64,000 nucleotides of DNA from an uncultured virus (IMG/VR IMGVR_UViG_3300028925_010764) (lineage: Duplodnaviria > Heunggongvirae > Uroviricota > Caudoviricetes): IMG/VR virus record IMGVR_UViG_3300028925_010764; one strand, given 5' to 3'. Made by a program: the position numbers and the translations under genes. Of the stretch, positions 19,312 through 40,791 are shown piece by piece. Below the pieces are notes generated by a model that was given only the letters and a program-made list of their open reading frames with translations, did no database searches and was not told the DNA's origin. Each line of letters begins with the position of its first letter. Position 1 is the stretch's first letter.

Positions 19312-19752
19312 TTAAACCTCGCGATAGAATCTGTGTCGCCTGATCGTGGTTTTGTATTCCATACCCCGCGCCCAATAAGGAGCCCTCGGGAGCATTTCAG
19401 GGGCATAGTAGTGTGTTGCCCCCTTGGTGACAGGCCAACGCCACTCCTCGACGCCGTGGGACGCCACATGCAGCGCGTAGAGCCAAGCTGACGACTTGGA
19501 CGCATCCCGTACTGCCCTCGAAACTCCGACCGACATTGAGGAGAACTGCTTACGCCTCACGACTTCCTGATAGGGGGTTCGACCAGAGATCTTGCAACGG
19601 TTGACGATCACATCCATCACCGCTGTCATCCCCTCCCTCCCGTCGATACCAGCTTCCCGGACCAGGCACGCCGCAACCGCACTGCGCCGCCAGTCCGATG
19701 CCGTTGCTGACATGGCCGCAGCGAGGAGGAGGATAAGGAGGAGGATTTTCAT
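19312..19752 (-). CDS. Cell-wall hydrolase (SleB/Hydrolase_2 family), probable endolysin with signal peptide
   Basis: MKILLLILLLAAAMSA signal; REA....GM.AV..VIVNR, KQFS, GATHYY, PYWA and HRFY motifs. Confidence 0.85.
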   Translation of the reverse strand: MKILLLILLLAAAMSATASDWRRSAVAACLVREAGIDGREGMTAVMDVIVNRCKISGRTPYQEVVRRKQFSSMSVGVSRAVRDASKSSAWLYALHVASHGVEEWRWPVTKGATHYYAPEMLPRAPYWARGMEYKTTIRRHRFYREV

Positions 19753-19963
19753 TCTTTGCTGCGTATGAGATGTTCCACGATCCAACAGGCCCGCAACCAG
19801 CACCCGAACTCGCGCGCGGTCGCGGCCCGACCGCGTCCAAGGGACGCGCCGGCCGGCCCGCCGATCAAACCCTACACACGCTGGAACAATGCCCAGCCCG
19901 GCATACTTTATGTCAAGTAGGTTCGTCATCATCGTGCCCAACATTCGATTTTTTTTCAACCCG

Positions 19964-20146
19964 TCACTCTGGTATCCGTATCAGTCTCCATTTGCACTCA
20001 GGCAGAAGGAGCTCCAGATCTTGGAACCCCATTTCAGTCATCTGCTTCGATATGAAGGTTTGTTCCTTTTCAACCACCCGGAGGTCTATTGACACCTCCA
20101 GGCCCTTGATCAACTCTCTGAGCTGCTGCTTCTCTTCTTCATTCAT
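19964..20146 (-). CDS. Hypothetical protein (60 aa)
   Basis: Plausible composition; first gene of the leftward operon. Confidence 0.45.
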   Translation of the reverse strand: MNEEEKQQLRELIKGLEVSIDLRVVEKEQTFISKQMTEMGFQDLELLLPECKWRLIRIPE

Positions 20147-20528
20147 AATTCAAGGGTTCGATCCACTTCCGGATGCAAAGGCTCCCAAATCACGGCCTTA
20201 TACCCCCTTTCCTTACCGTATGCGGATCGAAGAGTCAATCGCTTTCTCTCAAACCCCTCTGTGACCCCTTCAGGATTTAAATGATCCAGAAACACAACCA
20301 GGCTATTCCATCCTCACTGGAGAGTAGAGACGAGAGCCCTCTTCTTGATATGGCACGGACGCGCGCAAACCCCGGATAGCCCCCTTGACCCAAGTCAACC
20401 CGGTCAGCTTTCACGCTTAAGGTGACCGCGCAACCTGTAACACTATGCGACCAAGGGTGATAGGACATCGAAGCGTTGTCCTTGCCATTGAAACGAAAAC
20501 AAAACTGCAGAACAAAGAAGATCGACAT

Positions 20529-21194
20529 ATGAAAAACAAAAGCATCATTGGAGCCGCCCACCTTAAGGCTCTCACCGACGGAACGAAGGCCGCCATCAAA
20601 GCGGACTCCACCGTTAAGGATACCCTAATGGCAATCACCGCCGAACTCGGTATCTTCGAGAGGTTGAAAGATCCCTCGACCGGTGAGTTCCCGGTGGTGG
20701 TGGAAAAGGATGTGACCGTCAACCTTGAAGGAACCCCGTGGGTTAACTTCATGCCGCGACAGTCCACCACAACCACCGCTACGAAGGCGACGCCCGCCGT
20801 GACTACGAAGGATGCGACCAACGCGCCGTGCGTTGTGTCGGAATACTTCAAGGTTCCGAAGGGGTCGGAGCATTTCGATTGGCTGACGACAGTCAGGCAC
20901 GAAATGATTCAGGCGATTCACGCCGGGGGCAAGGCGCTAGACGTCGCCTCTCGTGAAATCAAGGCGGCATGGCGTAGCATGGGGGTTGACCTCGTGCTGC
21001 AAGCGAATGCGACGGCGCCGGCGACGGGGTTGGCGTCGATAACAGACGCGACGACGCGGACGATGATGGAGGGTATCCTCCTTCAAATCCGCAACATCGC
21101 GGGAACAGGGTCTAAAATCAAGGTGGCCGCCAAGTTGGCGCGGCTCATCACCGTGGAACTGATGGAGCAGAGCAAGGCGGCGGGAGAGAAATAA
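20529..21194 (+). CDS. Hypothetical protein, first gene of the early-like region
   Basis: ATG at 20529 after an A-rich leader. Confidence 0.7.
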   Translation: MKNKSIIGAAHLKALTDGTKAAIKADSTVKDTLMAITAELGIFERLKDPSTGEFPVVVEKDVTVNLEGTPWVNFMPRQSTTTTATKATPAVTTKDATNAPCVVSEYFKVPKGSEHFDWLTTVRHEMIQAIHAGGKALDVASREIKAAWRSMGVDLVLQANATAPATGLASITDATTRTMMEGILLQIRNIAGTGSKIKVAAKLARLITVELMEQSKAAGEK

Positions 21195-21200
21195 AATCGA

Positions 21201-21252
21201 ATGTCGGGTTTTCAGCCTGTCGCCAAGGGGCGGCAGGCTGATGACCGGGCAT
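21201..21252 (+). other. Long imperfect hairpin (RNase III-site-like)
   Basis: TCAGCCTGTCGCC-AAGG-GGCGGCAGGCTGA upper stem plus a lower stem; no U-tract. Confidence 0.6.
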
Positions 21253-21294
21253 CACAAGGCTCGGGACGGTGAACACTCAATGGAAAGGACAAAG

Positions 21295-21489
21295 ATGGCT
21301 GATAGACAGTATTGGACAGGATTCGGCAGCAACTCCACGTTTGGGTGGGGGCTGAGTTGGTTCGCGACGGAGGCAGAGGCGTTGGCTTATGCCTTGAGCG
21401 GCAAGGGCGGCGATCTTGGCGATGGCGTCTACGTCGTCGCTGAGCGGACGGTGAAGGTTGAGCGACTGACTGGCGAGGTGGAAGCATGA
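21295..21489 (+). CDS. Hypothetical protein (64 aa)
   Basis: AAGGA SD before the ATG at 21295. Confidence 0.6.
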   Translation: MADRQYWTGFGSNSTFGWGLSWFATEAEALAYALSGKGGDLGDGVYVVAERTVKVERLTGEVEA

Positions 21490-21611
21490 TCGTCGAGGTG
21501 ATGGCGCTGGTAGCGCTGGTCGGGGCTGCCTTCACTGGCGGCTGGATCATCGGCATCAAGACAGAGCGGGCCGCGGTGGCGCGGTTCGACTCGACACCAA
21601 CGGAACTGTGA
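21486..21611 (+). CDS. Small membrane peptide (41 aa)
   Basis: Hand translation MIVEVMALVALVGAAFTGGWIIGIKTERAAVARFDSTPTEL; GAGGTGG SD and ATGA overlap. Confidence 0.55.
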   Translation: MIVEVMALVALVGAAFTGGWIIGIKTERAAVARFDSTPTEL

Positions 21612-21626
21612 TGGGAATGGGCGGGT

Positions 21627-21709
21627 CACCCGATTCAATCGGGTGTCCCTCCCTCTCCGGCCACAACGGAGCCGGGTAACAACGAACAGGAAGCAGAAGG
21701 ACCAACATG
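21627..21709 (+). repeat. Intergenic module copy 1 (GATT-N-AATC palindrome, CCGGC hairpin, CAA-rich leader)
   Basis: CACCCGATTCAATCGGGTG followed by CCGGCCACAACGGAGCCGGG-TAACAACGAACAG; near-identical to 22005-22084. Confidence 0.8.
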
Positions 21710-21982
21710 CAAGAGAAGCTGAAAGACTTCAGGAGTCATGGCATCAACCACCAGCCAAAGGCGTATCGGACACGCTGGCACCAACGGCGTGAGGCCAGGG
21801 TGGGTGATGTCAAGATGGACATCGAGACGGAGATCAATGAGTTGAGTGATGGCCGGTGGCTGCCGCTACACCACGTTGATCCCAACCCGAAGGCGCATGA
21901 GCTGATCGCGGCAATCGTCATCAACCATGCGGTGATCAAGCTGGTGTACGACGACGGCGCCTTTGACATCATTCGTGGTTGA
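21707..21982 (+). CDS. Hypothetical protein (91 aa)
   Basis: AAGGACCAAC-ATG initiation site. Confidence 0.7.
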   Translation: MQEKLKDFRSHGINHQPKAYRTRWHQRREARVGDVKMDIETEINELSDGRWLPLHHVDPNPKAHELIAAIVINHAVIKLVYDDGAFDIIRG

Positions 21983-22004
21983 GTGATCGGATCGGAGCGG
22001 GGAC

Positions 22005-22084
22005 TGGATTTAATCCACTGTCCCCTCTCCCACCCGGCCACAACGGAGCCGGGGTAACAACGAACAGAAAGGCAGACTAACATG
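22005..22084 (+). repeat. Intergenic module copy 2
   Basis: TGGATTTAATCCA followed by CCGGCCACAACGGAGCCGGGG-TAACAACGAACAG. Confidence 0.8.
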
Positions 22085-22294
22085 ACAGTAATGACAGCAG
22101 CGCCAGTGATCACAACTCAAACAAGTGTGATCGAAGGCGTAGAAATGACGGAGACGCACAGCAATGGCGACTTGGTGGCGTTCTCGCTCCAATCCTTGCC
22201 GACTGTGGGGGATGTGATGAAGCAGCGGGATAAGCCGTGCTTCTGCGACATCTGCGAGGAGCGGGAGTGGAACCGCGAGGCGGTGGCGTCGTGA
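22082..22294 (+). CDS. Hypothetical protein (70 aa, CxCxxC)
   Basis: Follows the repeated leader; GTGA coupling to the next gene. Confidence 0.6.
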   Translation: MTVMTAAPVITTQTSVIEGVEMTETHSNGDLVAFSLQSLPTVGDVMKQRDKPCFCDICEEREWNREAVAS

Positions 22295-22518
22295 GTGATC
22301 ACGACGCCGAGGTGATCGACCTGTCGTGGATGACCGAGGCGCAAGCCAAGGCGTTCAAGGACAACGTGAAGGATCGGTGGAAGCACGTCGGTCGTGTTCG
22401 CCGTGACGGCTACGCCGCAGCGTTGATGTGGGTCAGCCAGATCGACCCGCCCGATGAGGACGGCGCGAGGGGCCGAATGATGCTCGGCATCGAGACGGAT
22501 GGATACACTCACTCGTAA
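22291..22518 (+). CDS. Hypothetical protein (75 aa)
   Basis: GTG start at 22291 with GAGGCGG SD; ends LGIETDGYTHS. Confidence 0.65.
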   Translation: MSDHDAEVIDLSWMTEAQAKAFKDNVKDRWKHVGRVRRDGYAAALMWVSQIDPPDEDGARGRMMLGIETDGYTHS

Positions 22519-22521
22519 GTA

Positions 22522-23360
22522 GTGAGCAGAGCGTGGGCAATGGGACAATCGTCCCATTGCCCTAGCTCTGTTCATCACGGGATGGATAGACGGAGCCAAT
22601 GGCGATTGGTTCTGTGTACAGGGGCGTTGCCCCGGTGAAGTGTGTGACGCGACTGGCTCAGTGGTGGGCCAGCTCGATTGACGTAAAGGACCCGGTTGAA
22701 CCGGATGCCTTTGGGAATAGTCCTCATGCGCGGATGAGCGGCCTGAATATGTGAGCCCACAATCACGATGTTCCACATGGAACATCTCGCCCACGGGTGG
22801 CGGCAGTGACCGGCGCGGCAGATCTGGATGGTGACCGACCATCCGGGCGGGGTATTGTACGAAAACCCTAGCAATCAGAGTATGCGCGAATGTGAAAAGA
22901 AACTCCGAACGGTTCCTATACCGTGATGCGAAGACTGTCCGCTCTGTGAGTGGAGCGGCAGTCTGGACGGGATGGCCACTGGATGTGCTGGCGGGGCAGA
23001 AGCCTGATGCAGCAGACAAACCATGTGGGCCAGTCAATGGGTACGGCGCCCGAGGCCGCGGCGACTGGATGGAGCGAGCACGTCTCCCTGTTTGGCGAGT
23101 GTCCAAGAAGGAACTAAATGCACGAGGGGCCAGATCGCCTCCCGGGTTCGACTCCCGTAATACTCGTGTGACGCACCAGCCTGATCCGGCTAAGAGTCAG
23201 ACAACAGAGGTTGTCCGGATGAGGATAACTGACATGGTGTGGAGATGGTGATCGCAGATGTCCCGGTCGATAGCGACCCGGCCGATGCGGAAGACCATTG
23301 GAATTGGAACGCGATAGGCCCAGACTGTGCCCTGATCCAACCAGAGATCAGGGCTTTTTT
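22522..23360 (+). ncRNA. Candidate large structured non-coding RNA (~780-840 nt)
   Basis: No credible gene in an otherwise gene-dense operon; more than a dozen hairpins, many with G-U pairs on the + strand; T-loop CGGG-TTCGACT-CCCG; ends in an intrinsic terminator. Confidence 0.65.
23329..23360 (+). terminator. Rho-independent terminator
   Basis: GCCCTGATC-CAACCAGA-GATCAGGGC-TTTTTT. Confidence 0.85.
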
Positions 23361-23760
23361 CATGCAGTGAACAGACCACCCGATTTAATCAGGTGTCGTC
23401 AGTCTGGAAAACTCGACCAAGCAAGATCAAAGCACCGGTCAAGCCGACCCCACCCGTGAATCAGATGCCGGCTACTAGCCGTGACGGATGACACCGCATC
23501 AGACCCCGGGCTTACAACCCGAGGGCGGTGACGTAGAGTGGAAAGGCGTAACCCCGTGATGTCTGCCTAATAAGCAGGCCGCTGCCCCTTCAAACAAGTC
23601 GAGGCTGGGATCCTCACTCAACTGTTCCAATTGTAAACGAACTCACGCCCCCTGCGGTATGTCCCGCGGGCCAGGCACAACAAGAACCCCACACCACTCG
23701 TGGATACACTCAGGCCATTTGCTGCTGATCTGCGGCAAGTGGCTTGAACTGTGCCCATAT
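23361..23760 (+). ncRNA. Second structured non-coding module (~400 nt)
   Basis: No ORF of 60 aa or more; stems at 23464-23500, 23504-23525, 23561-23579, 23651-23670 and 23701-23757. Confidence 0.4.
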
Positions 23761-23802
23761 CATGGACACTGAAACAGAAACCTAAACAACAAGGACATCA
23801 TC

Positions 23803-23982
23803 ATGTTTGGAAATAAGAAAGACGAAGCGCCTGCGAAAGTGGTGCGCGAACCCCGCAACTACAACCGAGGCAACGGCAACAGCCTGCGTGGCCTGCGCCG
23901 GGGGCTGGACCCCTACGCCATGGGCCGGGCCGGAGCCGTGGCCATGCAGCGCAAGCAACAGCACGAGAAGGAGGGGCTCTGA
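23803..23982 (+). CDS. Small basic protein (59 aa)
   Basis: Missed by the ORF track. AAGGA SD; MFGNKKDEAPAKVVREPRNYNRGNG...HEKEGL; TGATG coupling to the next gene. Confidence 0.65.
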   Translation: MFGNKKDEAPAKVVREPRNYNRGNGNSLRGLRRGLDPYAMGRAGAVAMQRKQQHEKEGL

Positions 23983-24551
23983 TGGGGAACCCGTTCTTCA
24001 AGATCTCTGGCTACAAGGAGTACGAGGCCATGGAGTCCATGGCTTATCGGTTCAAGCTGTTCTGGAAGAACGGCGACCGATGGGACTTCATCATGCACGT
24101 CGAAGAGTCGGGCCATGGTGGGCCGATGGACTTCCTCGACGAGATAGGTCGGAACATCATCCACCGCGAGATGTCCGACGAGACGGAGTGGACGTCGAAC
24201 GCCGGCCGCTCGTTCGAGAAGTGGCGCCAGACCCTGCCGGTCGAGGAGCGTGACTATGGCCTGCCTCCTGCGCGCGTCGGGCTGCCTGAGATCGCTGGAA
24301 ATATGGCCACGAGCCTGGCCCAGCGGAAGGAGCAGTTCAAGTGGATCAGGTCAAGTGTGGTGTTCTCCCTGCCGAGTGACGATCCCGGCGCCTTTCGGAC
24401 GTTCAAGGGCAAGTGGGAAGGCAACCTGATCGAGCACGTCAACAGGAAGTATCCCGACGCCACCGTGCTGAACCAGATCCACATCGGCCGCAAGCCTTCC
24501 GAGTTCTACTGGTCGGAGTGCTGCCCCTACAAAGACGAGGTGGAAGCATGA
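23982..24551 (+). CDS. Hypothetical protein (189 aa)
   Basis: AAGGAGG SD; translationally coupled. Confidence 0.75.
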   Translation: MGNPFFKISGYKEYEAMESMAYRFKLFWKNGDRWDFIMHVEESGHGGPMDFLDEIGRNIIHREMSDETEWTSNAGRSFEKWRQTLPVEERDYGLPPARVGLPEIAGNMATSLAQRKEQFKWIRSSVVFSLPSDDPGAFRTFKGKWEGNLIEHVNRKYPDATVLNQIHIGRKPSEFYWSECCPYKDEVEA

Positions 24552-24586
24552 CGCACGAGAAGGAGGCATGATTAACAAGTGACATC

Positions 24587-24635
24587 CTCCCTGCCCATCA
24601 TGGCCGTCATGGTGGGCAGCAGGGAGTTCGCTCCC
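24587..24635 (+). repeat. Long hairpin plus UUCG hairpin, copy A
   Basis: CTGCCCATCATG...CATGGTGGGCAG then GGGAG-TTCG-CTCCC; homologous to 25245-25295. Confidence 0.75.
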
Positions 24636-24680
24636 GACAGTCAACAGGCTGTCGTTATTCAGAAAATAAGGACCAACATT

Positions 24681-25235
24681 ATGTTAGAAGCAATTAAAGA
24701 CATGGCCATCGACGGCACGAAGCGTCTCACCTCAGACAACAAGAAGGCTCTCAGCGCACAGATTGAGAATGTCTTCAGGGAGGGACGTGTCATCGGCAAT
24801 GAGCGGCGTGACCACGCGAAGCGCGATGCTGTCTCTGACTACAAGAAGGCGCTTGGGATGCAGACCAAGATCGACGATATGAATGCGCTCGAGTCTCGCC
24901 GGAAGGCCATCGAGGCAGAGATCGAGGAGTTGGGGTTCTCTGTGATCGAGAGCGGCGGCTCGCACGTCGTGAACTCGGACGGCCGTTACGGCACCACGAG
25001 CCTCCACCTCCGCAAGAAACCGACGCAGGCTCAGGCCCGCGCTCACGCCAAGCTGGTGAAGGTCATCAACTCTGTCGTGGAGTTTGGCGACCAAGAGAAG
25101 GCGAAGTGCCTCGTTCGGATGCAGTTAGCTGAGACTCGCGCCGAAGGCTGCGTCATCATGCGGGAATTGCTCGGCAACGGCACACTGCCCGACATGAGCG
25201 ACCAGCTCCCTGCCCTGCCTGCTCCCCGCAGCTAA
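24681..25235 (+). CDS. Hypothetical coiled-coil protein
   Basis: AAGGACCAAC motif before the ATG at 24681. Confidence 0.75.
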   Translation: MLEAIKDMAIDGTKRLTSDNKKALSAQIENVFREGRVIGNERRDHAKRDAVSDYKKALGMQTKIDDMNALESRRKAIEAEIEELGFSVIESGGSHVVNSDGRYGTTSLHLRKKPTQAQARAHAKLVKVINSVVEFGDQEKAKCLVRMQLAETRAEGCVIMRELLGNGTLPDMSDQLPALPAPRS

Positions 25236-25244
25236 GGCAGCGAC

Positions 25245-25318
25245 CTCCCTCTGCCCATCAGGCGCGTGCCTGGTGGGCGGAATGGAGTTCGCTCCTCGAC
25301 CGTGACTTTAAGTCACGG
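25245..25318 (+). repeat. Long hairpin plus UUCG hairpin, copy B, followed by a variant palindrome
   Basis: TCTGCCCATCAGGC...GCCTGGTGGGCGGA, GGAG-TTCG-CTCC, CCGTGACTTTAAGTCACGG. Confidence 0.75.
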
Positions 25319-25350
25319 CCGGTAACAACAACAACGAACAGAAAGACACC

Positions 25351-25656
25351 ATGGAAGAACATGAATTGAATGCTGTGCTATCGAAGCACGGCGTCGACAA
25401 GAAGCTGATCGATCTGAGTGGATCGTATGAGCAGCGCCCCGACATCCCAGTCGAGGCGTCCAGAGCCATCATGGCCTACGTGGCCTCGCACCAGATGGAG
25501 CGGGACCATGTGAAGCGCAACGTGCTCCATTGGCAGGAGCGCAACGAGGTGAGGATGCGCGCCAAGCTGAGCCGGGCCGCGACGGAACAGCAGATGAACC
25601 AGAGCCCCTTCGGCCACATCGCCTTCACGCAGGCGGGGGAGTTGGTGATCCGATGA
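25351..25656 (+). CDS. Hypothetical protein
   Basis: CAA-rich leader; coupled to the next gene. Confidence 0.7.
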   Translation: MEEHELNAVLSKHGVDKKLIDLSGSYEQRPDIPVEASRAIMAYVASHQMERDHVKRNVLHWQERNEVRMRAKLSRAATEQQMNQSPFGHIAFTQAGELVIR

Positions 25657-25937
25657 GGTCACACTTCACAATCCATGAAGACCCCGGCCATGGCTGGTGC
25701 GAGGTGACACGCGACGAGGTCAATGAGCTGGGCATCGGCCCGAATATCACGAGCTTCTCCTACCAGTCGCGGGACGGTGAGACGTGCTACTTGGAGGAGG
25801 ACTGCGACTTCTCCGCGCTACATGCTGCGCTGAAGAAGCGAGGCATCGAGATGACGTGGGATCACGTCCACACCGACAACGAGCACTGGATCCGCGGCCT
25901 CCGCTCCTTCCAGCACAGAGAGGCGGTGGCGCGATGA
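25653..25937 (+). CDS. Conserved phage protein (DPGHGW...YLEEDCD family)
   Basis: HEDPGHGWCEV...SFSY...YLEEDCD, a motif I recall from uncharacterised phage early-region proteins. Confidence 0.7.
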   Translation: MRSHFTIHEDPGHGWCEVTRDEVNELGIGPNITSFSYQSRDGETCYLEEDCDFSALHAALKKRGIEMTWDHVHTDNEHWIRGLRSFQHREAVAR

Positions 25938-26263
25938 GCCACAACCACATGATGGACGTTGCATTCACTGTTATCAGCGATGAAAGCGATCCAGACAAGC
26001 TCACGGAGGCTGCCTTGATTGATGGCATGGAGCGCAGGCTTCAAGACCTCAAGAAGATGCCACCCGGCGAGGCATTGGAGGCGTTCGGTCACTGTGACGG
26101 ACAAGGGATGCCGATGATTGAGCGCTGCCGCGAATCCATCGCGAGGTGGCAATGCCGTCTCTGCTTGGAGATGGTCAACGTCAGGTCGTCTGACCACAGC
26201 TGCCCCACTGAAAAGCTGATGCAGGCTGCCCGTGGCGACTACGAAGAGGCGGTGGAGTCATGA
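25934..26263 (+). CDS. Hypothetical protein
   Basis: GAGGCGG SD and ATGA coupling; ATG at 25934. Confidence 0.65.
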   Translation: MSHNHMMDVAFTVISDESDPDKLTEAALIDGMERRLQDLKKMPPGEALEAFGHCDGQGMPMIERCRESIARWQCRLCLEMVNVRSSDHSCPTEKLMQAARGDYEEAVES

Positions 26264-26553
26264 GTGTGAACATCCGTTACACCGTTCCGATCACGACTCA
26301 CGATGACTTCGCGTTGCTTCAAACCCTGCTCGAATCGCAGGGCAAGGGGTTCCACTGCGAGGACAACGCCAACGATGTGGAGCATCTAGTTTACACCCAT
26401 CATCGCCGGGTGTTCACACCGGACGAGGCCATGCACCTGAACCAGCGAATGTGGGAAGCATACCAGCTTGACTGGTTTGAACACCCCGATGGTTGCCCTT
26501 GTGGCATGGCGATGCGGATCAATGGAATCGGACAGGAGGTGCCTGATGTCTAA
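26260..26553 (+). CDS. Hypothetical protein
   Basis: Coupled ORF containing FHCEDNA..V. Confidence 0.65.
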   Translation: MSVNIRYTVPITTHDDFALLQTLLESQGKGFHCEDNANDVEHLVYTHHRRVFTPDEAMHLNQRMWEAYQLDWFEHPDGCPCGMAMRINGIGQEVPDV

Positions 26554-26896
26554 GTCAGTCATACTCCTTCAGCATCACAGGCTCTGGGCCCTCACGAGGG
26601 CAGAGCTTCGCGACCTCGCCCGGCGCCATAGCGTCAAGCGGGGTCGGAACAAGCAGGACACCATCGACAACCTGATGGACAGCGGGATTGTCCAGCAGGA
26701 TCCCACCATCTGGATCGCAAGCTACGAAGGTGGGAGGTTCAGGTGGGTCGGCTACGGCCACGATGAGGAGGAGGCTATCGCTCTGCTTCTCCTGACGATC
26801 AAGGCATGGAACTCTGTGCCTAGTGAGTTCGCGACGGAGATCGAAGACGAAATGCACACTCAGGAGGTGTTCATTCCATCGGGGGACAGGCTATGA
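26546..26896 (+). CDS. Protein with an N-terminal Rho-N/SAP-like helix-extension-helix
   Basis: LTRAELRDLARRHSVKRGRNKQDTIDNL; GGAGG SD. Confidence 0.55.
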   Translation: MSKSVILLQHHRLWALTRAELRDLARRHSVKRGRNKQDTIDNLMDSGIVQQDPTIWIASYEGGRFRWVGYGHDEEEAIALLLLTIKAWNSVPSEFATEIEDEMHTQEVFIPSGDRL

Positions 26897-31658: not shown

Positions 31659-32456
31659 GTGAAGGTCAGGCTGGGGATTGACCTCCGGTCTGGCTACATC
31701 AAGAAGGCGCAGCTCCTCAAGGCGCCAGTCCTTCTGTCTGCCAATGCCCTCCGCACGGACAAAGGTGACAAGTGGAAGCGACTCCCCGACTTCGGGGATC
31801 TTGATGTCGCGCTCGACTCCGGAGGATTCGTTGCCGCCATGAATGGTGGCTTCAAGTTCAGCATGACTGAATACCTGGACCTCGTCGAGACGATGGGGCC
31901 CACATGGTATGCGGCCATGGACTACTGCTGCGAGCCTGAGATAGCAGGCGACCGTGACAAGGTGGCCGGTCGGATCGATCAGACGATTGAATCCCTCCGC
32001 GCCATGCTTGTCATGGTGAAGCAGCGAGACATGCAAGAGCCGATGCCCGTCGCCCAAGGCTGGACCCCTGATGAATACGAGGGGTGCCTTGAGAGGATGG
32101 CCGAGCTCTACGATGGAGGATTCCCTCCGCTCATTGGCGTCGGCTCAGTATGCCGGCGACCAGTGCACGGCGACACCGGCCTGTTCAACGTGTTGAATAG
32201 GATAGACCAGTGGCTCGCCGCTCATGGTCACACGACCAAGCTCCACCTGTTCGGAGTCAAAGGACAGGCACTCACGAAACTGCGGGCTTCATTCTCAGAC
32301 AGAGTGGAGTCCACGGATTCTTTCGCTCATGCCATGCGTGCTCAGTGGGCAGCATGGGAAGCCAGACGCTCTGGTGATGAGCCCATAAACCGAGTGGATC
32401 ACATGGAATTGTGGTACCACAAGAACACCCCAAAACAACGGTCCCTTTGGGACTAG
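31659..32456 (+). CDS. tRNA-guanine-transglycosylase-like (DpdA/DUF7221-like) protein
   Basis: VALDSGGF, MDY.CEP, PVAQGW....Y, GVGSVCRR, LHLFGVKG and S.DS motifs of TGT-like barrels. Confidence 0.8.
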   Translation: MKVRLGIDLRSGYIKKAQLLKAPVLLSANALRTDKGDKWKRLPDFGDLDVALDSGGFVAAMNGGFKFSMTEYLDLVETMGPTWYAAMDYCCEPEIAGDRDKVAGRIDQTIESLRAMLVMVKQRDMQEPMPVAQGWTPDEYEGCLERMAELYDGGFPPLIGVGSVCRRPVHGDTGLFNVLNRIDQWLAAHGHTTKLHLFGVKGQALTKLRASFSDRVESTDSFAHAMRAQWAAWEARRSGDEPINRVDHMELWYHKNTPKQRSLWD

Positions 32457-32467
32457 AAAGGAAAGAC

Positions 32468-33976
32468 ATGAAAGACTACACACTAGCTGACCTGTTCTGC
32501 GGAGCAGGAGGCACATCGACAGGTGCGATGCAGGCAGTGGAAGAGGCGGGCATGAAGCCCTCCCTCTTGGCTGTCAATCACTGGGAGCGTGCGATCGAGA
32601 CGCACACTCTCAACCACCCCGAACACCGGCACCTCTGCCAGAACATCGAGCAGATCAGGCCGCGCGAATACTTCAGGCCCAAGGGTCCGAAGCGGGGCTC
32701 TGAACTGCCCGAGCTCAACGGACTGTGGGCCTCACCCGAATGCACTCACCACTCGGTGGCGCTGGGCGGCCGGCCGGTCAACGATCAGAAGCGTTGCACT
32801 GCATGGAACGTGACCAACTGGGCAGAGCAGCTCCGTCCGGACTTCATCTGGGTGGAGAACGTGCCCGAGTTCCAGAACTGGGGGCCCATCGGATCGGACA
32901 ATCAGCCGCTCAAGTCAGGCAAGGGAAAGATATTCCATGCGTGGCTGGCTACCTTGCGTGGCATCGGCTACAAGGTGGACTATCGTGTGCTGCGGGCTGC
33001 TGACTACGGCGACCCCACCACACGGCAGCGCCTGTTCGTCGTCGCTGCACTGGGGAACCGCAAGATCGTGTGGCCTGACCCCACCCATGCCAAGGTGCCC
33101 GACCCGGACGACATGTTCGAGAGCCGGGAGCCGTGGCGCACTGCACGGAACGACGTCATCGACTGGACTATCGAGGGGACACCACTCGAAGACAGGGTCC
33201 GACCGCTTGCTCCGAAGACGTACGATCGCATCATCAATGGACTGTTCCGGCATGGACTCAACCCGACCGTCGTCGGCATCGACAACGGATCAGGGATGCA
33301 CGTCCGAGGCGTGGATGCCCCGCTCTCGACCATCACCACCAAGCAGAGGCACGCATTGGTGAAGCCCTACCTGGTGAAGTTCCGCGGGCAGCAGGCGGGC
33401 GAGTCACTTGACAATCCCCTTACCACCATCACGGCAGGCGGTAAGCACCATGGACTGGTCGAACCCTACCTCATACCGCAGATGCGGCGCACGCCCGACA
33501 GGTCGGTCGACCTCCCCTTGTCAACGGTTACGACAACGACCCGGGGCTATGGCTTGTGCGAGCCCTACTTGGTGAAGGTCAACCACGGCGGCGACAGTGA
33601 CAGGTCTATGAGCCTCGATAAACCGATGGGCACGGTGACATGCAAGAATGGCACCGCGTTGATCCAGCCCTACCTCGTGAAGTTCTACGGGGCAGACAAG
33701 CACGGGCAGCCCATCACTGAGCCGCTCGACACAGTCACCACCAAGGGCCGGTTCGCCTTGGTTGTGCCCACCCTCAAGGAGAATGAACCCGACATCTTTG
33801 AGATCTCATTCAAGTTCCGGATGCTGGCAGCACACGAGCTGGCCGCAGCGCAGGGCTTCATGCCTGACTACCAGTTCGCCGGCAACAAGAGTGAGATCGT
33901 AAAGCAGATAGGCAACGCAGTCCCTCGCCGGTTGGCAAGGGCGATAGTGCGGGCCTCGATAACACAAACCCCATAG
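32468..33976 (+). CDS. DNA (cytosine-5) methyltransferase with repeated internal units
   Basis: DLFCGAGG, SPECTHHS, ENVPEF, R.RLF and QIGNAVP motifs. Confidence 0.93.
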   Translation: MKDYTLADLFCGAGGTSTGAMQAVEEAGMKPSLLAVNHWERAIETHTLNHPEHRHLCQNIEQIRPREYFRPKGPKRGSELPELNGLWASPECTHHSVALGGRPVNDQKRCTAWNVTNWAEQLRPDFIWVENVPEFQNWGPIGSDNQPLKSGKGKIFHAWLATLRGIGYKVDYRVLRAADYGDPTTRQRLFVVAALGNRKIVWPDPTHAKVPDPDDMFESREPWRTARNDVIDWTIEGTPLEDRVRPLAPKTYDRIINGLFRHGLNPTVVGIDNGSGMHVRGVDAPLSTITTKQRHALVKPYLVKFRGQQAGESLDNPLTTITAGGKHHGLVEPYLIPQMRRTPDRSVDLPLSTVTTTTRGYGLCEPYLVKVNHGGDSDRSMSLDKPMGTVTCKNGTALIQPYLVKFYGADKHGQPITEPLDTVTTKGRFALVVPTLKENEPDIFEISFKFRMLAAHELAAAQGFMPDYQFAGNKSEIVKQIGNAVPRRLARAIVRASITQTP

Positions 33977-33991
33977 TGGATTCAATCCACT
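33975..33991. promoter_or_regulatory. GATT-N-AATC palindrome
   Basis: AGTGGATTCAATCCACT at the stop of the C5-MTase gene. Confidence 0.65.
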
Positions 33992-34008
33992 GTTTAGAAA
34001 GGACAACA

Positions 34009-34338
34009 ATGAAAGAACTCAGATCAGCAGCATTAGCAGCAGTGAACGCCAGTCACCGAGGACAGTATCAAGAGGCCACGGAATTATTATCCTTAGCTCT
34101 CGCCAAACTCGAAGAACAGGAGTGCATCGAGCGAAAGCTCAACGAGGTCGGCTTCGCCTTCCCTGTCCGGACGGCGAGCAAGGACGATCCACGAGGCCGT
34201 GAGTATGGCTGGTTTACGGCGTCACCGCGGATTAACACGGTGAAGGTCACGCACAAGACAGATAGTGCGGTTTACGAATGGACTGCCACCTTCCCTACGT
34301 TCGCCGACTTCAGTGAATGGGCAAAGGACAACTCATGA
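34009..34338 (+). CDS. Hypothetical protein
   Basis: AAGGACAAC leader before the ATG at 34009. Confidence 0.7.
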   Translation: MKELRSAALAAVNASHRGQYQEATELLSLALAKLEEQECIERKLNEVGFAFPVRTASKDDPRGREYGWFTASPRINTVKVTHKTDSAVYEWTATFPTFADFSEWAKDNS

Positions 34339-34559
34339 CCCTGGACGAAGCACGCAAGGAGGCACAAGCCTACGCCGACAAGCACCAGATAGTCTTAGCG
34401 GTGGTCCACGACCCAACGTCTATGGAAGACTGGCAAACCGAGGAGGAAGCATACAATTACTGCGCTCCAAACGCAGTAGACCTGATGTTCGGGCCCGGGC
34501 TCCGAGCGAAACTTGCAACACGAATCGAAACCATCACACCGAAAGGAAGACATGAATAA
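34335..34559 (+). CDS. Hypothetical protein
   Basis: AAGGA SD and ATGA coupling. Confidence 0.65.
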   Translation: MTLDEARKEAQAYADKHQIVLAVVHDPTSMEDWQTEEEAYNYCAPNAVDLMFGPGLRAKLATRIETITPKGRHE

Positions 34560-34929
34560 TATCGAAGGAACTGTAACCATACACGACGGCATCGCCACCA
34601 CTGAGGACGGCACACAAATCAAACTCCAGAGCAGGGAGGAGATAGTGCTCTCCGTGGCCGGGGAGATCTTCGGCGCCATCAAGCAGCACGGGCTGTTGAG
34701 TGCCGACGATCTGGCTGCGTGGGTGAGCGACCAAGGACTCCACCATCACCTGTATCAGCTCGCTTACCCCGAGGTGAACGAGGAAGGCGACGACGCATGT
34801 CCACCGGAGGATGCGACGGACGAGCAGACCGAGGCGGCATCCATGAACTACGCCCGAGGACTCGACGAGTTCGAGGGTGAACTGATGCACATAATCGACC
34901 CGGATAACGACTTCGACGATGAAGATTGA
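34552..34929 (+). CDS. Acidic protein, paralog of the domain in 26974-27699
   Basis: IVLSVAGEIFGA...LHHHLYQLAYP...YARGLDEFEGELMHIIDP. Confidence 0.7.
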   Translation: MNNIEGTVTIHDGIATTEDGTQIKLQSREEIVLSVAGEIFGAIKQHGLLSADDLAAWVSDQGLHHHLYQLAYPEVNEEGDDACPPEDATDEQTEAASMNYARGLDEFEGELMHIIDPDNDFDDED

Positions 34930-35036
34930 CCGAATCGTTCGACGCTCACGCCGTCGACTTGCCGAGCTACTAAAGGGCGGGGACTTCCCGCACGCTCAAA
35001 AACTCAGATCGAAACTGATACCGAAAGGAGAACTCG

Positions 35037-36140
35037 ATGGACCTAAACCTACAATTCGACAAGACGAAGATACCGATGACAGTGTGTAACGGAATGGGAT
35101 GGAACTCGTGGGCCATGCTCGTTGGGATGCACGACCGAGGCATCCGGCCCGACCTGATCATAACTGCCAACACCGGCAGTGAACACAGCGCCACCTACGC
35201 GGCGCAACCACGGCTGCACGAGTGGTTGGAGAAAGTGGGCTTTCCGCCCGTCACATACGTCAGGTATCAGGCCAGCAACTTCAAGAACTGGCCGCCCTAC
35301 CACTCGCTCGAAGACAACTGTCTGACCAACGGCACGCTCCCAAGCCTGGCGTTCGGTGGGCGCAAGAGTTGTTCGGCCAAGTGGAAGGTGACACCGCAGC
35401 TCAAGTTCATGGACACATGGCAGCCAGCCATGGATGCGTGGAACGCTGGCCTCAAGGTGATCAAGTGCATCGGCTTTGACGCCAGCCCGCAGGACGTGAA
35501 GCGGACCAGCACCTATGCCGAACTCCCTCCCAACGAGCGAGAGAAGTATGACATCCAGTATCCCTTACTGGAGTGGGGATGGGACCGGGAGGAGTGCGGC
35601 CGGCAGATCAAGAGGCATGGCCTGTTCTACCCAGAACCCGAACACCTCGGTGTCGCCGGCAAACACGGCGGCCGCTACTACAAGTGTGCATACTGCAACG
35701 GGACAGGCAGGGTCACACGTTACGAACCGCCAGTAGCAGTGCCGTGTCCGGACTGTCAAGACATTGATGAAGGGCCCGGCCTGTGCAAATCCTCCTGCTT
35801 CTTCTGTCCCGCGATGAAGACATGGGAGGTGCGAGCACTGCCCGAGGATGAACTCAAGCGCATCGTGGTGATGGAGGCCCGGGCCGCGCCACGACTGACG
35901 AAGATCCAAGGACTCTGGGGAGTGGGGATCAAGGGAACCAGAGGGGGCGACAAGCGCCCCGGATCGATGACCCAGTTCATTCGAGACGAAGGGCTGTTGC
36001 CCACCGAGGTGATCGACAAGCTGATCGCCGACACGCCCAAGGCAATCGTGTCCTACCAAGAGGGCTACGCCAAAGCACAGCACGACGGGGATCTGGAGAA
36101 GTTCCTCGCCGTTTACGAAGACGACGACTACCGACACTAA
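35037..36140 (+). CDS. PAPS-reductase-like (adenine nucleotide alpha-hydrolase superfamily) protein
   Basis: Variant PP-loop CNGMGWNS, ANTGSE, CS.KWK..P, IGFDA, YPLLEWGWDR..C and KSSCFFCP motifs. Confidence 0.75.
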   Translation: MDLNLQFDKTKIPMTVCNGMGWNSWAMLVGMHDRGIRPDLIITANTGSEHSATYAAQPRLHEWLEKVGFPPVTYVRYQASNFKNWPPYHSLEDNCLTNGTLPSLAFGGRKSCSAKWKVTPQLKFMDTWQPAMDAWNAGLKVIKCIGFDASPQDVKRTSTYAELPPNEREKYDIQYPLLEWGWDREECGRQIKRHGLFYPEPEHLGVAGKHGGRYYKCAYCNGTGRVTRYEPPVAVPCPDCQDIDEGPGLCKSSCFFCPAMKTWEVRALPEDELKRIVVMEARAAPRLTKIQGLWGVGIKGTRGGDKRPGSMTQFIRDEGLLPTEVIDKLIADTPKAIVSYQEGYAKAQHDGDLEKFLAVYEDDDYRH

Positions 36141-36154
36141 AAGAAAGGACCAAC

Positions 36155-39100
36155 ATGCAGACGATGACAAGTAAACCACAAGGCCGATCAGGATTAGCTA
36201 ACGCTCAAGAGAGTATTCAAGAACTCCTCGACGCAAGCGCAGGCAGCGTTAAGGCAACCACCTTGACCAACCTGCAGCAATACGAAACCCCGGCATGGCT
36301 GTCGACCCTGTGCCACCTCCTCCTGCCCACCACCCCTGACACGGAGTTCGATCCGACGTGTGCCAGCGGCAACCTGATCCGGAGCGCACGCTACGGGTTC
36401 GGCGTGGACATCGACAACAAGCACGCCACTGAGGACAGGACACGCCTGACCGGCAACATGGTCAAGGTGTGGGAGATCCTCGACGACGTTTATCCTGACC
36501 TCCGCTTCGAGTGCCAGGTGGCGAACCCTCCCTTCGGGTTGAGCTGGAAGGTTGGCGTTGGCGACACCACGCACAACAAGGCTGACAGCACGGCCTACAC
36601 CTACGCCAAGCTGCGCGAGCGCACGGCATGGAATGGCTACGGGTTCATGATCGCGAACCGGAAGACCATCGAGAAGGAGGACTGGCAGCACGACACCGGG
36701 GTCTACCTCTACCTCACCATGCCGGCTGGAGTGTGGGAGAACTGCGACGTCGAGCTCGGCATCGTGTTCTGGCAGAACGTCACGGTCCCACGGGAGCTGG
36801 TCACCTTTAACGTGAACAAGGAAGCATCCCTTGACCTGTTGAAACGTGAGCCTCGAACACTGATGACCATAGATGAGATAGCTGAGGTTCGCCGCGTCAA
36901 CCGGTTAGCACCCGGCCCGTCCATCGCGCCCAACGTGGAGGCATTGGACGGATCCAAGTATGCCAGCTACGCCTGTCTCTACAGGGTGTGGTCGGAGATC
37001 GACGCCATGCTGAGCGAGGAGCGAAGGAAGATCCCGCCCTTCAATATCTACCTCAACGATGACGGGATGCTTCAGACCTACCTGAGTCAGCGCTTCCAGA
37101 TCACGCGCAAGATACTGCGCGACGACGTGATCAAGCTGGAGCGGATCAACAAATGCCACCCTCTCTCCCTCACTGCGGAGAAGGAGACGCGGCTGCTCAT
37201 GCAGGAGCTCCTCGACTTAGGTGTCTACACCATCCAACCCGAGGCTGCGGCTGCCATCAAGGAGGCGCTCGCCGATGTGCACCGTATGTCGGCGCCACTC
37301 ATGCCGGTCACCCAGTTCATGAAGGTGGCGTATGCTGATGAGTCCGAGACGCTGAGATGCCATAACTTCTCACACGGGTTCAACGAGGACACCCACTACA
37401 GCGTGGACACCGGGACGTATGCGTGGGAACGCAAGTTCAGCCGTAAGAAGATCCACTGGAACAAGGACGACGGGCAGCACTGCGTGGATCACTCCATCCA
37501 GTTGTCAGGCATGGACCGATACATCTCCCTGAAGGATGAAATCAATACGCCTCACTACTTCTGCGAGCACCCGAGCGCGAACGAGATGAAGAATAAGGTT
37601 AAGAGTGAGAACGCCATCATCCACCATGAGGCGGAACTGTGGGAGATCTTCGACGAGCCCGTGGTTCCTACTGTCGTCGAGCTCAACCCGGAGAAGATCA
37701 AGATCAACAAGCGTTCGCTTGCCATGATCGAGATGATGGGTGGATTCAAATACTACCCGGGCCAGGTGGACTACCTCGCGCGCATCGGCACCAAGGAAGG
37801 CTGCATCGTTGCGGCTGACGTTGGATGCGGCAAGACACTGATGGCAATCTCCCTCATTCAGATGAAAGGGCCGAAACGCGCCATGATCATCGCACCTCAA
37901 GGGACTATGCGTGGATCCGATGGAGTGGAGCAGGAATACAACGCCAGCCAGTGGGTGACGGAGATCAGCACGTTCGCGCCGGGACTGGAGGTCTATGAGA
38001 TCTTCTGCCTTGAGGACTATGGCCGAATCAAGGCGATGAACGGTGGCTCCCTGCCGAACGGGGTGTTCATCAGCTACTACCAAGCCATGTTCCAGAACAA
38101 GGGGCAAGAGTCATGCCCTGATACGTGGAACGATATGAAGCTGAGCGAGGCCGTGGGAATCAAGCACCCCTCACTGATTGGGGAAGATCACGAGGTGTGG
38201 GCAACCGATGAGGACGGGGAGCTCAAGGAGAACGACGACGGTGACCACTACAAGATCGAGAACCCTAAGTTCGTGGCCGTGCGAAGCAGCAAGGAGATGT
38301 GCAAGGACGTTGGCACTGAGAAGCGCGGTATCCGCTGCATCCTCAAGCCTTGCTTGTCCACCCTGATCCAGCATGAGTTCGATGCGGTGTTCTTGGATGA
38401 GGCTCACCTCTGCTCCAACCTCGCAGCCAACGTCACGCAGATGCTGATCAGGATGCGCCCCGCTCTACGCTTCGCCCTGACTGCAACTCCGATCCCAAAC
38501 ATCGTGAGCAACCTGTTCTCGGTGATGGGATGGGTGTGTGTGCCGGACTGGTATAAGGATGAGATCCGCAACGCGGCGTGGCCGTGGGCTCGCAAGGAGA
38601 TCGGCCGCTTCAACAACCTGTTCCTCTCCAGCGAGCGGGACTACACGCAGGAGGCACTGGACGAGCTGTCGAAGAAGAAGGCAGGGCGTTGCATTAAAAA
38701 GTCTCCGGTCATCAGCTCGCCGGCTAGGCTTCTCAAGCACCTGTCGCCGAGCATGGCATACATCGGCAAGGACATGTGCAACCCGAAGTATGTTTCGCCG
38801 AACATCATCGACATCAGGGTGGGGCATGGCGAGGAGCAGGCGGGACTCTACTCGTTCTTCATGGACCGAGGTCGTATCCCTGGCAACGCATTCGTCAGGG
38901 CAGGCAAGCAGATCCAGTATCTGAGGAACATTTGCGCGGACCCGAATGGGTTCAAGCTCAAGCCTGATCAGCTCTGCCTCTACGATGAGCACCCTCCCGA
39001 GTGCGAGAGCAACATGAACCCGAAGACGACGGCAATCCTTGAGTTGATCAGGGACATCGGACTGCGCGACGAGCAGGTAGTGGTGGTGTCCAGTAGGATC

Positions 39101-39619
39101 GGCCAGTCCAACACCATCGAACGCTACCTGCGCGAGACAGGGTATCGCATCAGCCGGATCGACTCGACTGTCCCGGCCAAGATGCACGCGCAGCAGGCGA
39201 GCATCTTCAAGGCTCGCAAGACAGACGTGCTGATCATGGGCATCAAGTGCGCGCAGGGTTACTCGTTCCCCGACTGCCCGAACCTGATCATCGGATCGCT
39301 CGAGTATTCCTACGGCCCCTTCCATCAGGCCAAGGGCCGGGTCGACCGGGTGAACAGCAGGCGGCAGGCGAATATCTACTGCGTGCTGAACAAGGACTCG
39401 ATCGAGGAGACGATGTTCGACGTGGTCGCCACCAAACAGGACGCGGCGACGATCTGCCTCCATGGGAAGAGGATTGAGCGCGACTTCAAGCCGGTCGATC
39501 TCGGTGAAGTGCTTGCTATCGCACTAGAGAAGGCTATTTTGGACACGACGAGCGAGGCTCTCTGCGAATCCCTCTGGCCTGAGATGCGCGCCAGCTTCAA
39601 ACGTCCTCTCTTAGCGTGA
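36155..39619 (+). CDS. Amino-MTase-like domain fused to a SNF2-type helicase (DarB-like architecture)
   Basis: FDPTCASGNL and NPPF in the N-terminal part; ADVGCGKT, DEAH, TATP and QAKGRVDR helicase motifs. Confidence 0.85.
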   Translation: MQTMTSKPQGRSGLANAQESIQELLDASAGSVKATTLTNLQQYETPAWLSTLCHLLLPTTPDTEFDPTCASGNLIRSARYGFGVDIDNKHATEDRTRLTGNMVKVWEILDDVYPDLRFECQVANPPFGLSWKVGVGDTTHNKADSTAYTYAKLRERTAWNGYGFMIANRKTIEKEDWQHDTGVYLYLTMPAGVWENCDVELGIVFWQNVTVPRELVTFNVNKEASLDLLKREPRTLMTIDEIAEVRRVNRLAPGPSIAPNVEALDGSKYASYACLYRVWSEIDAMLSEERRKIPPFNIYLNDDGMLQTYLSQRFQITRKILRDDVIKLERINKCHPLSLTAEKETRLLMQELLDLGVYTIQPEAAAAIKEALADVHRMSAPLMPVTQFMKVAYADESETLRCHNFSHGFNEDTHYSVDTGTYAWERKFSRKKIHWNKDDGQHCVDHSIQLSGMDRYISLKDEINTPHYFCEHPSANEMKNKVKSENAIIHHEAELWEIFDEPVVPTVVELNPEKIKINKRSLAMIEMMGGFKYYPGQVDYLARIGTKEGCIVAADVGCGKTLMAISLIQMKGPKRAMIIAPQGTMRGSDGVEQEYNASQWVTEISTFAPGLEVYEIFCLEDYGRIKAMNGGSLPNGVFISYYQAMFQNKGQESCPDTWNDMKLSEAVGIKHPSLIGEDHEVWATDEDGELKENDDGDHYKIENPKFVAVRSSKEMCKDVGTEKRGIRCILKPCLSTLIQHEFDAVFLDEAHLCSNLAANVTQMLIRMRPALRFALTATPIPNIVSNLFSVMGWVCVPDWYKDEIRNAAWPWARKEIGRFNNLFLSSERDYTQEALDELSKKKAGRCIKKSPVISSPARLLKHLSPSMAYIGKDMCNPKYVSPNIIDIRVGHGEEQAGLYSFFMDRGRIPGNAFVRAGKQIQYLRNICADPNGFKLKPDQLCLYDEHPPECESNMNPKTTAILELIRDIGLRDEQVVVVSSRIGQSNTIERYLRETGYRISRIDSTVPAKMHAQQASIFKARKTDVLIMGIKCAQGYSFPDCPNLIIGSLEYSYGPFHQAKGRVDRVNSRRQANIYCVLNKDSIEETMFDVVATKQDAATICLHGKRIERDFKPVDLGEVLAIALEKAILDTTSEALCESLWPEMRASFKRPLLA

Positions 39620-40121: not shown

Positions 40122-40791
40122 ACCACTGCGACGGCACGTTATCGGAGCTGGGGCTATTAGGCCCAAGCCAGCCACGCCGGTCCTCACCATCGACGCCGAG
40201 CGAATGCTCGAATTGTACGAGGCCGACAAGGCATGGCGTGACAGGCAGAAGAACGTGGAAAGGCTGGAGGCTGCGCGAGATGAGAAGGTAAAGAAGATCT
40301 CAGTTAAAATCAAAAGGGTGTCGAAGTTATTCACCAAACTTTGCGCCCTTCGTAAGACTTGGAAGAACGGGAAGCATAGGGGTTTGCGCGCTGCACTCAC
40401 CTCGCTGACCACACGAGAGAGACTACTAATCCAGCTCGAACTTGCCGACCGCGTGAAGGAGTATCGACGCGATCTCCGCGCATGGCGAGCCGAGCTATAT
40501 GCAAAGGACCAACATGCAGATGATAAAGAAAGGACGGATCTGGCACGTCCGATACAAGAGCCAGAACGGAGCACTGATGCTCACCACGAAACAAACGGAT
40601 CTGACCCAAGCCAAGAAGGTAGTGGAGGAGGCGGGGATCAAGCAGATAGAACAGGCCGCGCAAGCGGGGATCATGACGGACAGCGCCATATCGGCGGCGG
40701 TGAACGGGAGGAAGGTGACGCTCAAGACAGCCTTCCTCCAGTGGTGCCACTGGATGACGACATCCCTGGCCCCTCGGACCAAGGAGAATAA
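40114..40791 (+). CDS. Possible basic coiled-coil protein overlapping the recombinase gene
   Basis: Fills the 40121-40514 gap; its last ~90 codons overlap the recombinase in another frame. Confidence 0.35.
   Translation: MTEPLRRHVIGAGAIRPKPATPVLTIDAERMLELYEADKAWRDRQKNVERLEAARDEKVKKISVKIKRVSKLFTKLCALRKTWKNGKHRGLRAALTSLTTRERLLIQLELADRVKEYRRDLRAWRAELYAKDQHADDKERTDLARPIQEPERSTDAHHETNGSDPSQEGSGGGGDQADRTGRASGDHDGQRHIGGGEREEGDAQDSLPPVVPLDDDIPGPSDQGE

Follow-up and report, generated by a model that had tools for sequence, protein, structure and literature searches.

In phage T7, processing hairpins for ribonuclease III (RNase III) lie between the early genes and separate coding cistrons. Phages and prophages can also carry large ornate RNAs such as GOLLD and ROOL, which are 600-800 nucleotides (nt) long (PMC5737381; bioRxiv 10.1101/2024.12.08.627333). 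As another example, the crAss-like phage phi14:2 makes long and abundant early intergenic transcripts, of unknown function, at its g004-g005 and g005-g006 junctions (bioRxiv 10.1101/2020.03.07.982082). Small RNAs derived from 3' untranslated regions (3' UTRs) share the terminator of the upstream messenger RNA (mRNA) (PMC9438474). Known examples of them are 50-300 nt long and act by short base pairing. The locus described here is a 1.28-kilobase (kb) gap between genes, at 22519-23802, in a stretch of 64,000 nt (the window) from an uncultured virus of the Caudoviricetes (IMG/VR record IMGVR_UViG_3300028925_010764), which is a novel marine temperate phage. The gap sits in a plus-strand block of small genes without assigned function, which extends from 20.4 to ~30 kb and starts opposite the lysis genes. 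An earlier description made from the letters of the DNA, called the sequence-only reading below, had proposed one giant (~800 nt) structured non-coding RNA at this place, possibly similar to a class named MISL. Our preferred explanation, tentative and with a probability of roughly 0.45, is that the gap consists of an early operon's untranslated tail, a chain of modular hairpins, and behind it the leader of the operon that comes next. The two pieces would be:

22519-23360, plus strand: putative untranslated tail of the upstream operon
23361-23802, plus strand: remaining half of the gap, presumed to hold promoter and leader for the following operon, whose gene starts at 23803

The gap is non-coding. 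The sequence-only reading was right that the bordering genes abut or overlap and that 22519-23802 holds no credible coding sequence; codon scan, third-position G+C content (GC3), shuffles of stop-free runs, recoding and homology searches all agree on this. A scan of codon log-likelihood, with 16 confident genes as its training set, shows no positive frame between 22500 and 23700 and clearly positive small genes on both sides, and 22441-23791 is the sole low-coding stretch of at least 450 nt across the 64 kb. GC3 is 0.55-0.57 in the two longest open reading frames (ORFs) of the gap, compared to 0.69-0.85 in six in-frame real genes. A long minus-strand frame was ruled out as a gene: its 226 stop-free codons are the longest such run in the gap, and this length is equalled by 82 of 1000 dinucleotide shuffles. 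An alternative genetic code was ruled out as well, as reading through TGA, TAG or TAA opens no frame across the gap. The ORFs at 22892-23251 (plus), 22117-23106 (minus) and 22575-22874 (minus) match no Pfam and no PHROGs family. Of all frames in the gap 22892-23251 is the best, with a codon score near 0 and not clearly negative. An exhaustive phmmer search with the 119-amino-acid (aa) ORF against 1.84 billion representatives gave three weak matches (E 5.6e-5 to 9.6e-4), each of them split into 4-9 short stretches within long proteins.

The first piece of the gap contains a series of stems on the plus strand that closes with a terminator. The sequence-only reading had listed these stems, and 14 elements were folded in its windows with 200 shuffles each. 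The shuffle figures for single elements flatter the stems, because the windows had been picked to fit them. The more prominent elements are the following, all on the plus strand:

22519-22580, plus strand: long hairpin, an inverted repeat (free energy, ΔG, -46.9 kcal/mol; z-score, z, -9.6; 0/200 shuffles)
22588-22618, plus strand: local hairpin, 11 base pairs (bp), two of them G-U (ΔG -15.4, z -5.0)
22650-22675, plus strand: local hairpin, 8 bp, one G-U (z -2.8, 2/200 shuffles)
22764-22789, plus strand: local hairpin, 8 perfect Watson-Crick pairs, forms on either strand (z -4.7)
22820-22850, plus strand: local hairpin, 10 bp, two G-U (z -2.5, 5/200 shuffles)
22930-22966, plus strand: local hairpin, 13 bp with one bulge (ΔG -21.7, z -5.0)
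23171-23300, plus strand: two compound hairpins (z -2.6 and -3.0; 2 and 1 of 200 shuffles)
23329-23360, plus strand: intrinsic terminator, 9 pairs (6 G-C) at 23329-23354 and a TTTTTT tail (ΔG -16.8 kcal/mol, z -4.0, 0/200 shuffles)

All of the listed stems can be drawn, but they are of unequal quality. Five of the 14 elements are matched by none of the 200 shuffles (22519-22580, 22588-22618, 22764-22789, 22930-22966 and the terminator), and another five by 1-5 (22650-22675, 22683-22714, 22820-22850, 23171-23242 and 23243-23300). The remaining four are weak: 22906-22927, 22619-22636, 23118-23171 and 22720-22741 are matched by 8, 12, 30 and 96 of 200 shuffles, respectively.

The long hairpin begins directly past the upstream stop codon (22518). 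Its upper stem is perfect over 12 bp, and below a 2x2 internal loop comes a lower stem of 11 bp that includes one G-U pair. The pairs total 23-25, and no U tract follows the hairpin. RNase III sites are double-stranded RNA of at least ~20 bp, often with an internal loop, between RNA segments, and the 22519-22580 hairpin has this form; its predicted structure makes it a candidate for processing of the RNase III type or for a stabilising role. At the other end of the series, 23329-23360 is indeed the textbook terminator that had been claimed, with a U tract right behind a G+C-rich hairpin; this holds for the plus strand alone, as on the minus strand the T tail is absent. Within 19500-26500 no other strong terminator occurs on the plus strand. 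The excess of G over C and of A over T in the plus-strand genes upstream persists up to 23250 and is reversed after it, with GC skew negative in 23361-23802. Together, these strand signals point to a plus-strand transcript. G-U pairs number 9 in the six perfect plus-strand hairpins versus 2 in the four minus-strand hairpins, an excess that fits an RNA-level role of the stems.

Folded as a whole on the plus strand, the 847 nt reach -372.4 kcal/mol compared to -324.9 in shuffles (z -5.46); the minus strand has z -4.07. To this extent the region has more structure than chance, but most of the excess comes from one hairpin, as the first hairpin (-46.9 versus -16.2 kcal/mol in shuffles) supplies ~31 of the 47.5 kcal/mol. 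For the body, meaning the 746 nt without the first hairpin and the terminator, 20 shuffles give z -2.85 on the plus and -2.09 on the minus strand (-2.14 in a 10-shuffle repeat), a small difference between the strands. The claimed bias of G-U pairs to the plus strand is weakly borne out. Three coding segments of the same length within the early block have z of -4.51, -4.70 and -3.14, and the body is weaker than all three. In 200-nt windows, scanned over 1-26300, the mean z of the body is -1.24, rank 67 of 256, compared to -2.78 in the upstream coding operon and -0.21 in the first 20 kb. The body contains six perfect hairpins of at least 7 pairs, and the 253 phage windows of equal size contain 3.2 +/- 2.0, which places it ~1.4 standard deviations above the mean. 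Among plus-strand perfect hairpins of at least 10 bp, 11 of the 25 in 64 kb fall within 20974-25394. The scan for perfect hairpins found the following ones at gene junctions:

21212-21241, plus strand: gene-junction hairpin
22284-22309, plus strand: gene-junction hairpin
24591-24619, plus strand: gene-junction hairpin
25250-25281, plus strand: gene-junction hairpin

The first of these ends on the A of a start codon, and the second spans a stop/start overlap.

Because coding segments fold better than the gap and the block is rich in hairpins, the small-gene block at 20400-25400 on the plus strand is predicted to make unusually structured RNA of which the gap is not the peak. Local stems dominate in both the centroid and the minimum free energy (MFE) structures. 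These comparisons do not support the proposal of one giant (~800 nt) structured RNA, since the body does not exceed the surrounding coding mRNA in structure. It is worth noting more generally that a non-coding, hairpin-rich stretch that beats shuffles can still be no more structured than the surrounding mRNA, and that controls from the same genome matter for claims about folding.

In our preferred explanation, two untranslated pieces would join two transcription units within a hypervariable small-gene block. The first, 22519-23360, would be the untranslated tail of a plus-strand operon starting near 20.4 kb. RNA polymerase would pass the stop codon at 22518, copy the long hairpin and a number of mostly independent local hairpins, and stop at the terminator. 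The long hairpin would form double-stranded RNA of the kind that RNase III cuts or that blocks exonucleases, and may for this reason either detach the tail from the mRNA or make the mRNA more stable. The tail would then be a modular chain of hairpins like those at gene junctions across the block, and not one globular RNA. The second piece, 23361-23802, would control the next operon and supply its structured leader.

Several points weigh against this. The body folds better than all of 15 same-length controls from outside the early block (z +2.87 to -1.98), and the MFE fold proposes long-range helices around the local stems. No sigma-70-type promoter is predicted for either transcription unit, which is why the promoter role of 23361-23802 is one that we infer. 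Transcription, processing and any function are likewise deduced from the DNA. Finally, phage genomes are compact and the 64 kb contain no second gap of this sort; 840 nt would be unusual for a purely passive tail, which hints that the tail has its own function.

The second piece is itself strongly structured before the next gene. It contains a very stable plus-strand hairpin of 16 bp at 23710-23747, and z is -5.6 in the 200-nt window at 23601 and -6.3 in the one at 23701. A 12-mer has two exact copies in the 64 kb:

22500-22511, plus strand: TGGATACACTCA, first copy
23701-23712, plus strand: TGGATACACTCA, second copy

Both exact copies immediately precede a hairpin, and these two hairpins are the strongest on the plus strand. 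The first copy is still inside coding sequence, in the final codons of the gene upstream, and ends 10 nt ahead of the long hairpin. The 12-mer was rejected as a promoter used generally by the phage, with only two exact copies and matches with one or two mismatches at chance rate (7 matches with up to two mismatches, where 3.8 are expected).

Further downstream, a conserved leader motif precedes small early genes. Its first element is a hairpin of 9-14 bp, and after a spacer of 3 nt come a mini-hairpin, a third hairpin and then the ribosome site. Two copies are found in the window and two in a related phage (G001):

24584-24655, plus strand: leader motif in the window, with a first stem of 13-14 bp and a four-pair GGAG-UUCG-CUCC mini-hairpin
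25244-25320, plus strand: second copy in the window, of the same description
14-110 of L053, plus strand: leader motif of G001, before its first gene
285-380 of L053, plus strand: leader motif of G001, before its second gene

The mini-hairpin has the form GGAG-YUYG-CUCC in three of the four copies, the fourth being a 6-bp variant. The 25-nt core of the motif occurs twice, compared to an expectation of 0.00. In the copies of the related phage, the first stem shows a compensatory change from C-G to U-A in one case and is a wholly different stem in the other. The motif has no Rfam match, and a covariance model of it (R1) finds no copy within the gap. As a signal it may serve processing or antitermination, or be linked to a promoter. 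We consider it a firmer lead than the tail, and it could mark a regulatory or processing signal of the early genes in this phage group. The ORF at 24579-25235, annotated with a GTG start, probably begins at an in-frame ATG at 24681 behind an AAGGA site; the first motif copy would therefore lie in an untranslated leader, as is the case for the second.

The relatives of the phage bear on the next explanation, that the gap is decaying DNA. Searches with blastn against GenBank phages gave no DNA match to the gap, and searches of IMG/VR with neighbouring proteins found none. One neighbouring protein is known from one contig only, of 79,723 bases. A neighbouring DUF5131 protein has one relative with 40% identity (L001), and similarity to the gap is absent there. 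The large terminase (TerL) found nothing in IMG/VR when used as a single query. As a profile it found five loci in JGI metagenomes and nine in IMG/VR, the best of the latter being 50% identical. Close TerL relatives (P0004, 93%; P0005, 75%, on a 77.9-kb contig; P0006, 76%; P0007, 68% identical) are present in Logan or ENA assemblies. Three related phage records, with terminases 50% (G001) and 37-39% (G002 and G003) identical, have structural and replication genes in common with the window. The gap has no DNA similarity to the whole of these three records (blastn E>0.09; nothing by nhmmer). Their own non-coding gaps are unlike that of the window and have no Rfam matches. Scans of IMG/VR for exact words from the long hairpin and from a tRNA-like T-arm piece (see below) returned 0 matches.

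Between 16.5 and 30.1 kb, no window ORF of at least 60 aa has a homologue in the three related records, while structural, replication and integrase genes are common to them. By this comparison, 16.5-30.1 kb appears to be a hypervariable accessory block. The gap could then be a remnant of genes lost from this fast-changing block, with hairpins that are left over or due to chance and with no function beyond the terminator and the next promoter. The missing homologues are in line with that, as are a neighbouring 189-aa protein that is a singleton among 5.8 billion clusters, the near-zero codon score of the best frame, and a hairpin density that is only ~1.4 standard deviations over the phage mean. 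Residual protein similarity is, however, absent in every frame, and there is no significant similarity to upstream genes. The idea of a decayed duplicate of an upstream gene, which came from short repeats, was rejected on a BLASTP E of 11 and on a best local DNA alignment that 24 of 200 shuffles reach. Phages also usually delete useless DNA quickly. By k-mer share, the stretch is present in part in 20 metagenome runs of marine or seawater origin, which come from 8 studies and one of which may be the source of this DNA, and the sequence is almost unchanged there. This shows prevalence and not selection. Four runs of one study (X2, X3, X5 and X12), compared in detail as far as their contigs cover the gap, carry the same phage with two substitutions in 2.3 kb, at 22426 and 23676. 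None falls within 22519-23360. None of the 21 runs with the stretch by k-mer share is an RNA run. On balance we regard decay as rather unlikely.

A 33-nt piece at 23047-23080 matches, with one mismatch and one gap, a deep (20-25x) unrelated long contig in all four compared runs. It was considered as a spacer of clustered regularly interspaced short palindromic repeats (CRISPR) and rejected, because it is not flanked by repeats. When species genomes were scanned for 19-mers of this piece, 28 loci turned up, none of which extends the match, and the lone IMG/VR match is due to chance too. The 33-nt match is probably a chance match in G+C-rich DNA.

Closest to the sequence-only reading is the proposal that one large structured non-coding RNA (~800 nt), belonging to a new class, would be released from the operon transcript by a cut at 22522-22575, run up to the terminator and have its own function, for example as scaffold, decoy or tRNA-like mimic. 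The main support for this proposal is that the window has no second non-coding island of such length, a gap of this kind being unique in a compact genome. The difference in whole-region z between the strands agrees with it, as do the body value below all 15 controls from outside the early block, the plus-strand preference of G-U pairs, and the clean ends, with a hairpin at one and a terminator at the other. Another point in its favour is an acceptor/T-arm-like minihelix with a T-loop-like motif in the following piece:

23096-23167, plus strand: weak tRNA-like piece, called only by ARAGORN -ps70 (local fold z -1.0)

It has a 7-bp acceptor-like stem (23097-23103 paired with 23159-23165) and carries a T-loop-like GGTTCGACTCC at 23145-23155 on a 4-bp arm, which resembles a tRNA, where the T loop is closed by a G-C-rich stem and stacks on a 7-bp acceptor stem. 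It makes no cloverleaf: the D arm is missing and the anticodon stem is 4 bp with a mismatch. The T-loop-like motif counts for little, because the same motif occurs within the 4350-aa ORF of the tail module; it is also found in coding DNA of both the phage and its relatives. Default ARAGORN gives no transfer RNA (tRNA) or transfer-messenger RNA (tmRNA) here, and neither do the Rfam tRNA and tmRNA models (the tRNA model down to E<=10). ARAGORN -ps70 gives 360 'tRNA' calls in 64 kb and, for tmRNA in standard or permuted form, only noise-level 'tmRNAp' calls. The piece at 23096-23167 was therefore rejected as tRNA, tmRNA or attachment site, being at the noise level of ARAGORN.

Comparison with known RNA families speaks against the large RNA too. 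At gathering score, the Rfam 15 covariance models have no match in the whole window, which covers GOLLD, ROOL, OLE, HEARO, raiA, tmRNA, RNase P, group I/II introns, C4 and others. We take RF01998 and RF03087 to be the models for GOLLD and ROOL. At E<=10, eight matches are found in 22300-24000, seven of them to microRNA-precursor models and one to a small nucleolar RNA model (E 8.3). Six of the microRNA-precursor matches lie on the first hairpin and one at 23872-23946 on the minus strand, and all were judged noise. At E<=1, there is no credible match in 19900-26600. The suggested likeness to MISL is not supported, there being no Rfam 15 match at gathering score, insofar as MISL is included in Rfam 15, and only microRNA-hairpin noise at E<=10. 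A full-text literature search found no paper that uses the name MISL. Taken together with the one hairpin that supplies most of the energy excess, a body at rank 67 of 256 that is less structured than adjoining coding controls, and the lack of a homologue in GenBank phages, IMG/VR or the three related records, this makes a single large RNA unlikely. What remains of the sequence-only reading is a non-coding stretch that folds better than shuffles, with plus-strand signals and a terminator; the giant RNA and the likeness to MISL are not supported. None of the outcomes that it had named as refuting (a reading frame conserved among homologues, folding no better than in shuffled controls, no discrete transcript) occurred.

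A bolder version, which we find quite improbable, is that the 840 nt from the 22522-22575 hairpin to the terminator are a free-standing, RNase III-released RNA of an undescribed class, with the acceptor/T-arm minihelix engaging host tRNA-handling enzymes or tRNA-directed defences. If true, it would give the orphan giant RNAs of phages a marine counterpart.

It is very improbable that the gap acts at the DNA level, as a replication origin, a packaging site or a tRNA-derived attachment site. Inverted repeats and the tRNA-like fragment with its T-loop-like motif could be read this way, and the phage encodes a tyrosine integrase. However, 22519-23802 contains no iterons, no tandem repeats and no A+T-rich dip (GC 0.55-0.61) of the kind looked for in an origin; its direct repeats are weak and two-copy only. 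Only two of the stems are perfect Watson-Crick, and the G-U pairs of the others become A-C mismatches on the other strand. The integrase gene is 17 kb away, at 40499-41662, and the tRNA-like piece is at noise level. Unrecognised small protein genes (a 17-codon frame at 23118-23171, or frames at 22599-22754 and 23023-23160) are very improbable as well: a Shine-Dalgarno-like AAGGAA stands 5 nt before the ATG at 23118 and AAGGA-type sites are used by real genes nearby, but the codon scores are negative (-0.1 to -0.5), homologues are lacking, and together the frames cover only a small part of the gap.

Elsewhere the window encodes a large terminase (3258-4958, minus strand), an endolysin (19312-19959, minus strand) and the tyrosine integrase mentioned above, as well as an exonuclease, a DnaB-type helicase, a Holliday-junction resolvase, DNA-modification genes and the 4350-aa ORF (49826-62878, minus strand). 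The latter has no Pfam, PHROG or PDB sequence match, and has relatives of 25-30% identity in the three related records. With no such match, and with hairpins that need G-U pairs, the idea that it might be a virion RNA polymerase using hairpin promoters carries no weight in our explanation. By PHROG names, there is probably a DNA-modification cluster at 31659-39619 on the plus strand:

31659-32456, plus strand: queuine tRNA-ribosyltransferase-like
32411-33976, plus strand: DNA methyltransferase
35037-36140, plus strand: PAPS-reductase-like
36155-39619, plus strand: 1154-aa helicase

How does the gap compare with the systems described at the start? As in T7, a long imperfect hairpin with an internal loop comes right after a cistron (22519-22580), and there are more hairpins at the gene junctions of the block. 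Unlike in T7, what follows is an 800-nt untranslated tail and not a coding cistron, and cleavage here is predicted. As with the 3'-UTR-derived small RNAs, there would be untranslated RNA past a stop codon that ends at the terminator of the operon and could be released by processing; it differs from the known examples in that the tail is 840 nt long and has no known target. The likeness to phi14:2 lies in a long untranslated stretch in a block of early genes, read in the direction of the genes. The phi14:2 transcripts are abundant by RNA sequencing and the phage is unrelated, whereas the gap is known from DNA. With GOLLD and ROOL the gap shares the size class, the phage setting, the non-coding island and a tRNA-like piece nearby. 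It is unlike them in having no covariance-model match even at E<=10, folding that is not above the local background, and no demonstrated conserved multi-helix junctions or pseudoknots and no known family of homologues. If the tail does turn out to be a conserved folded RNA, it would be a marine, high-GC addition to the few large orphan phage RNAs of unknown function.

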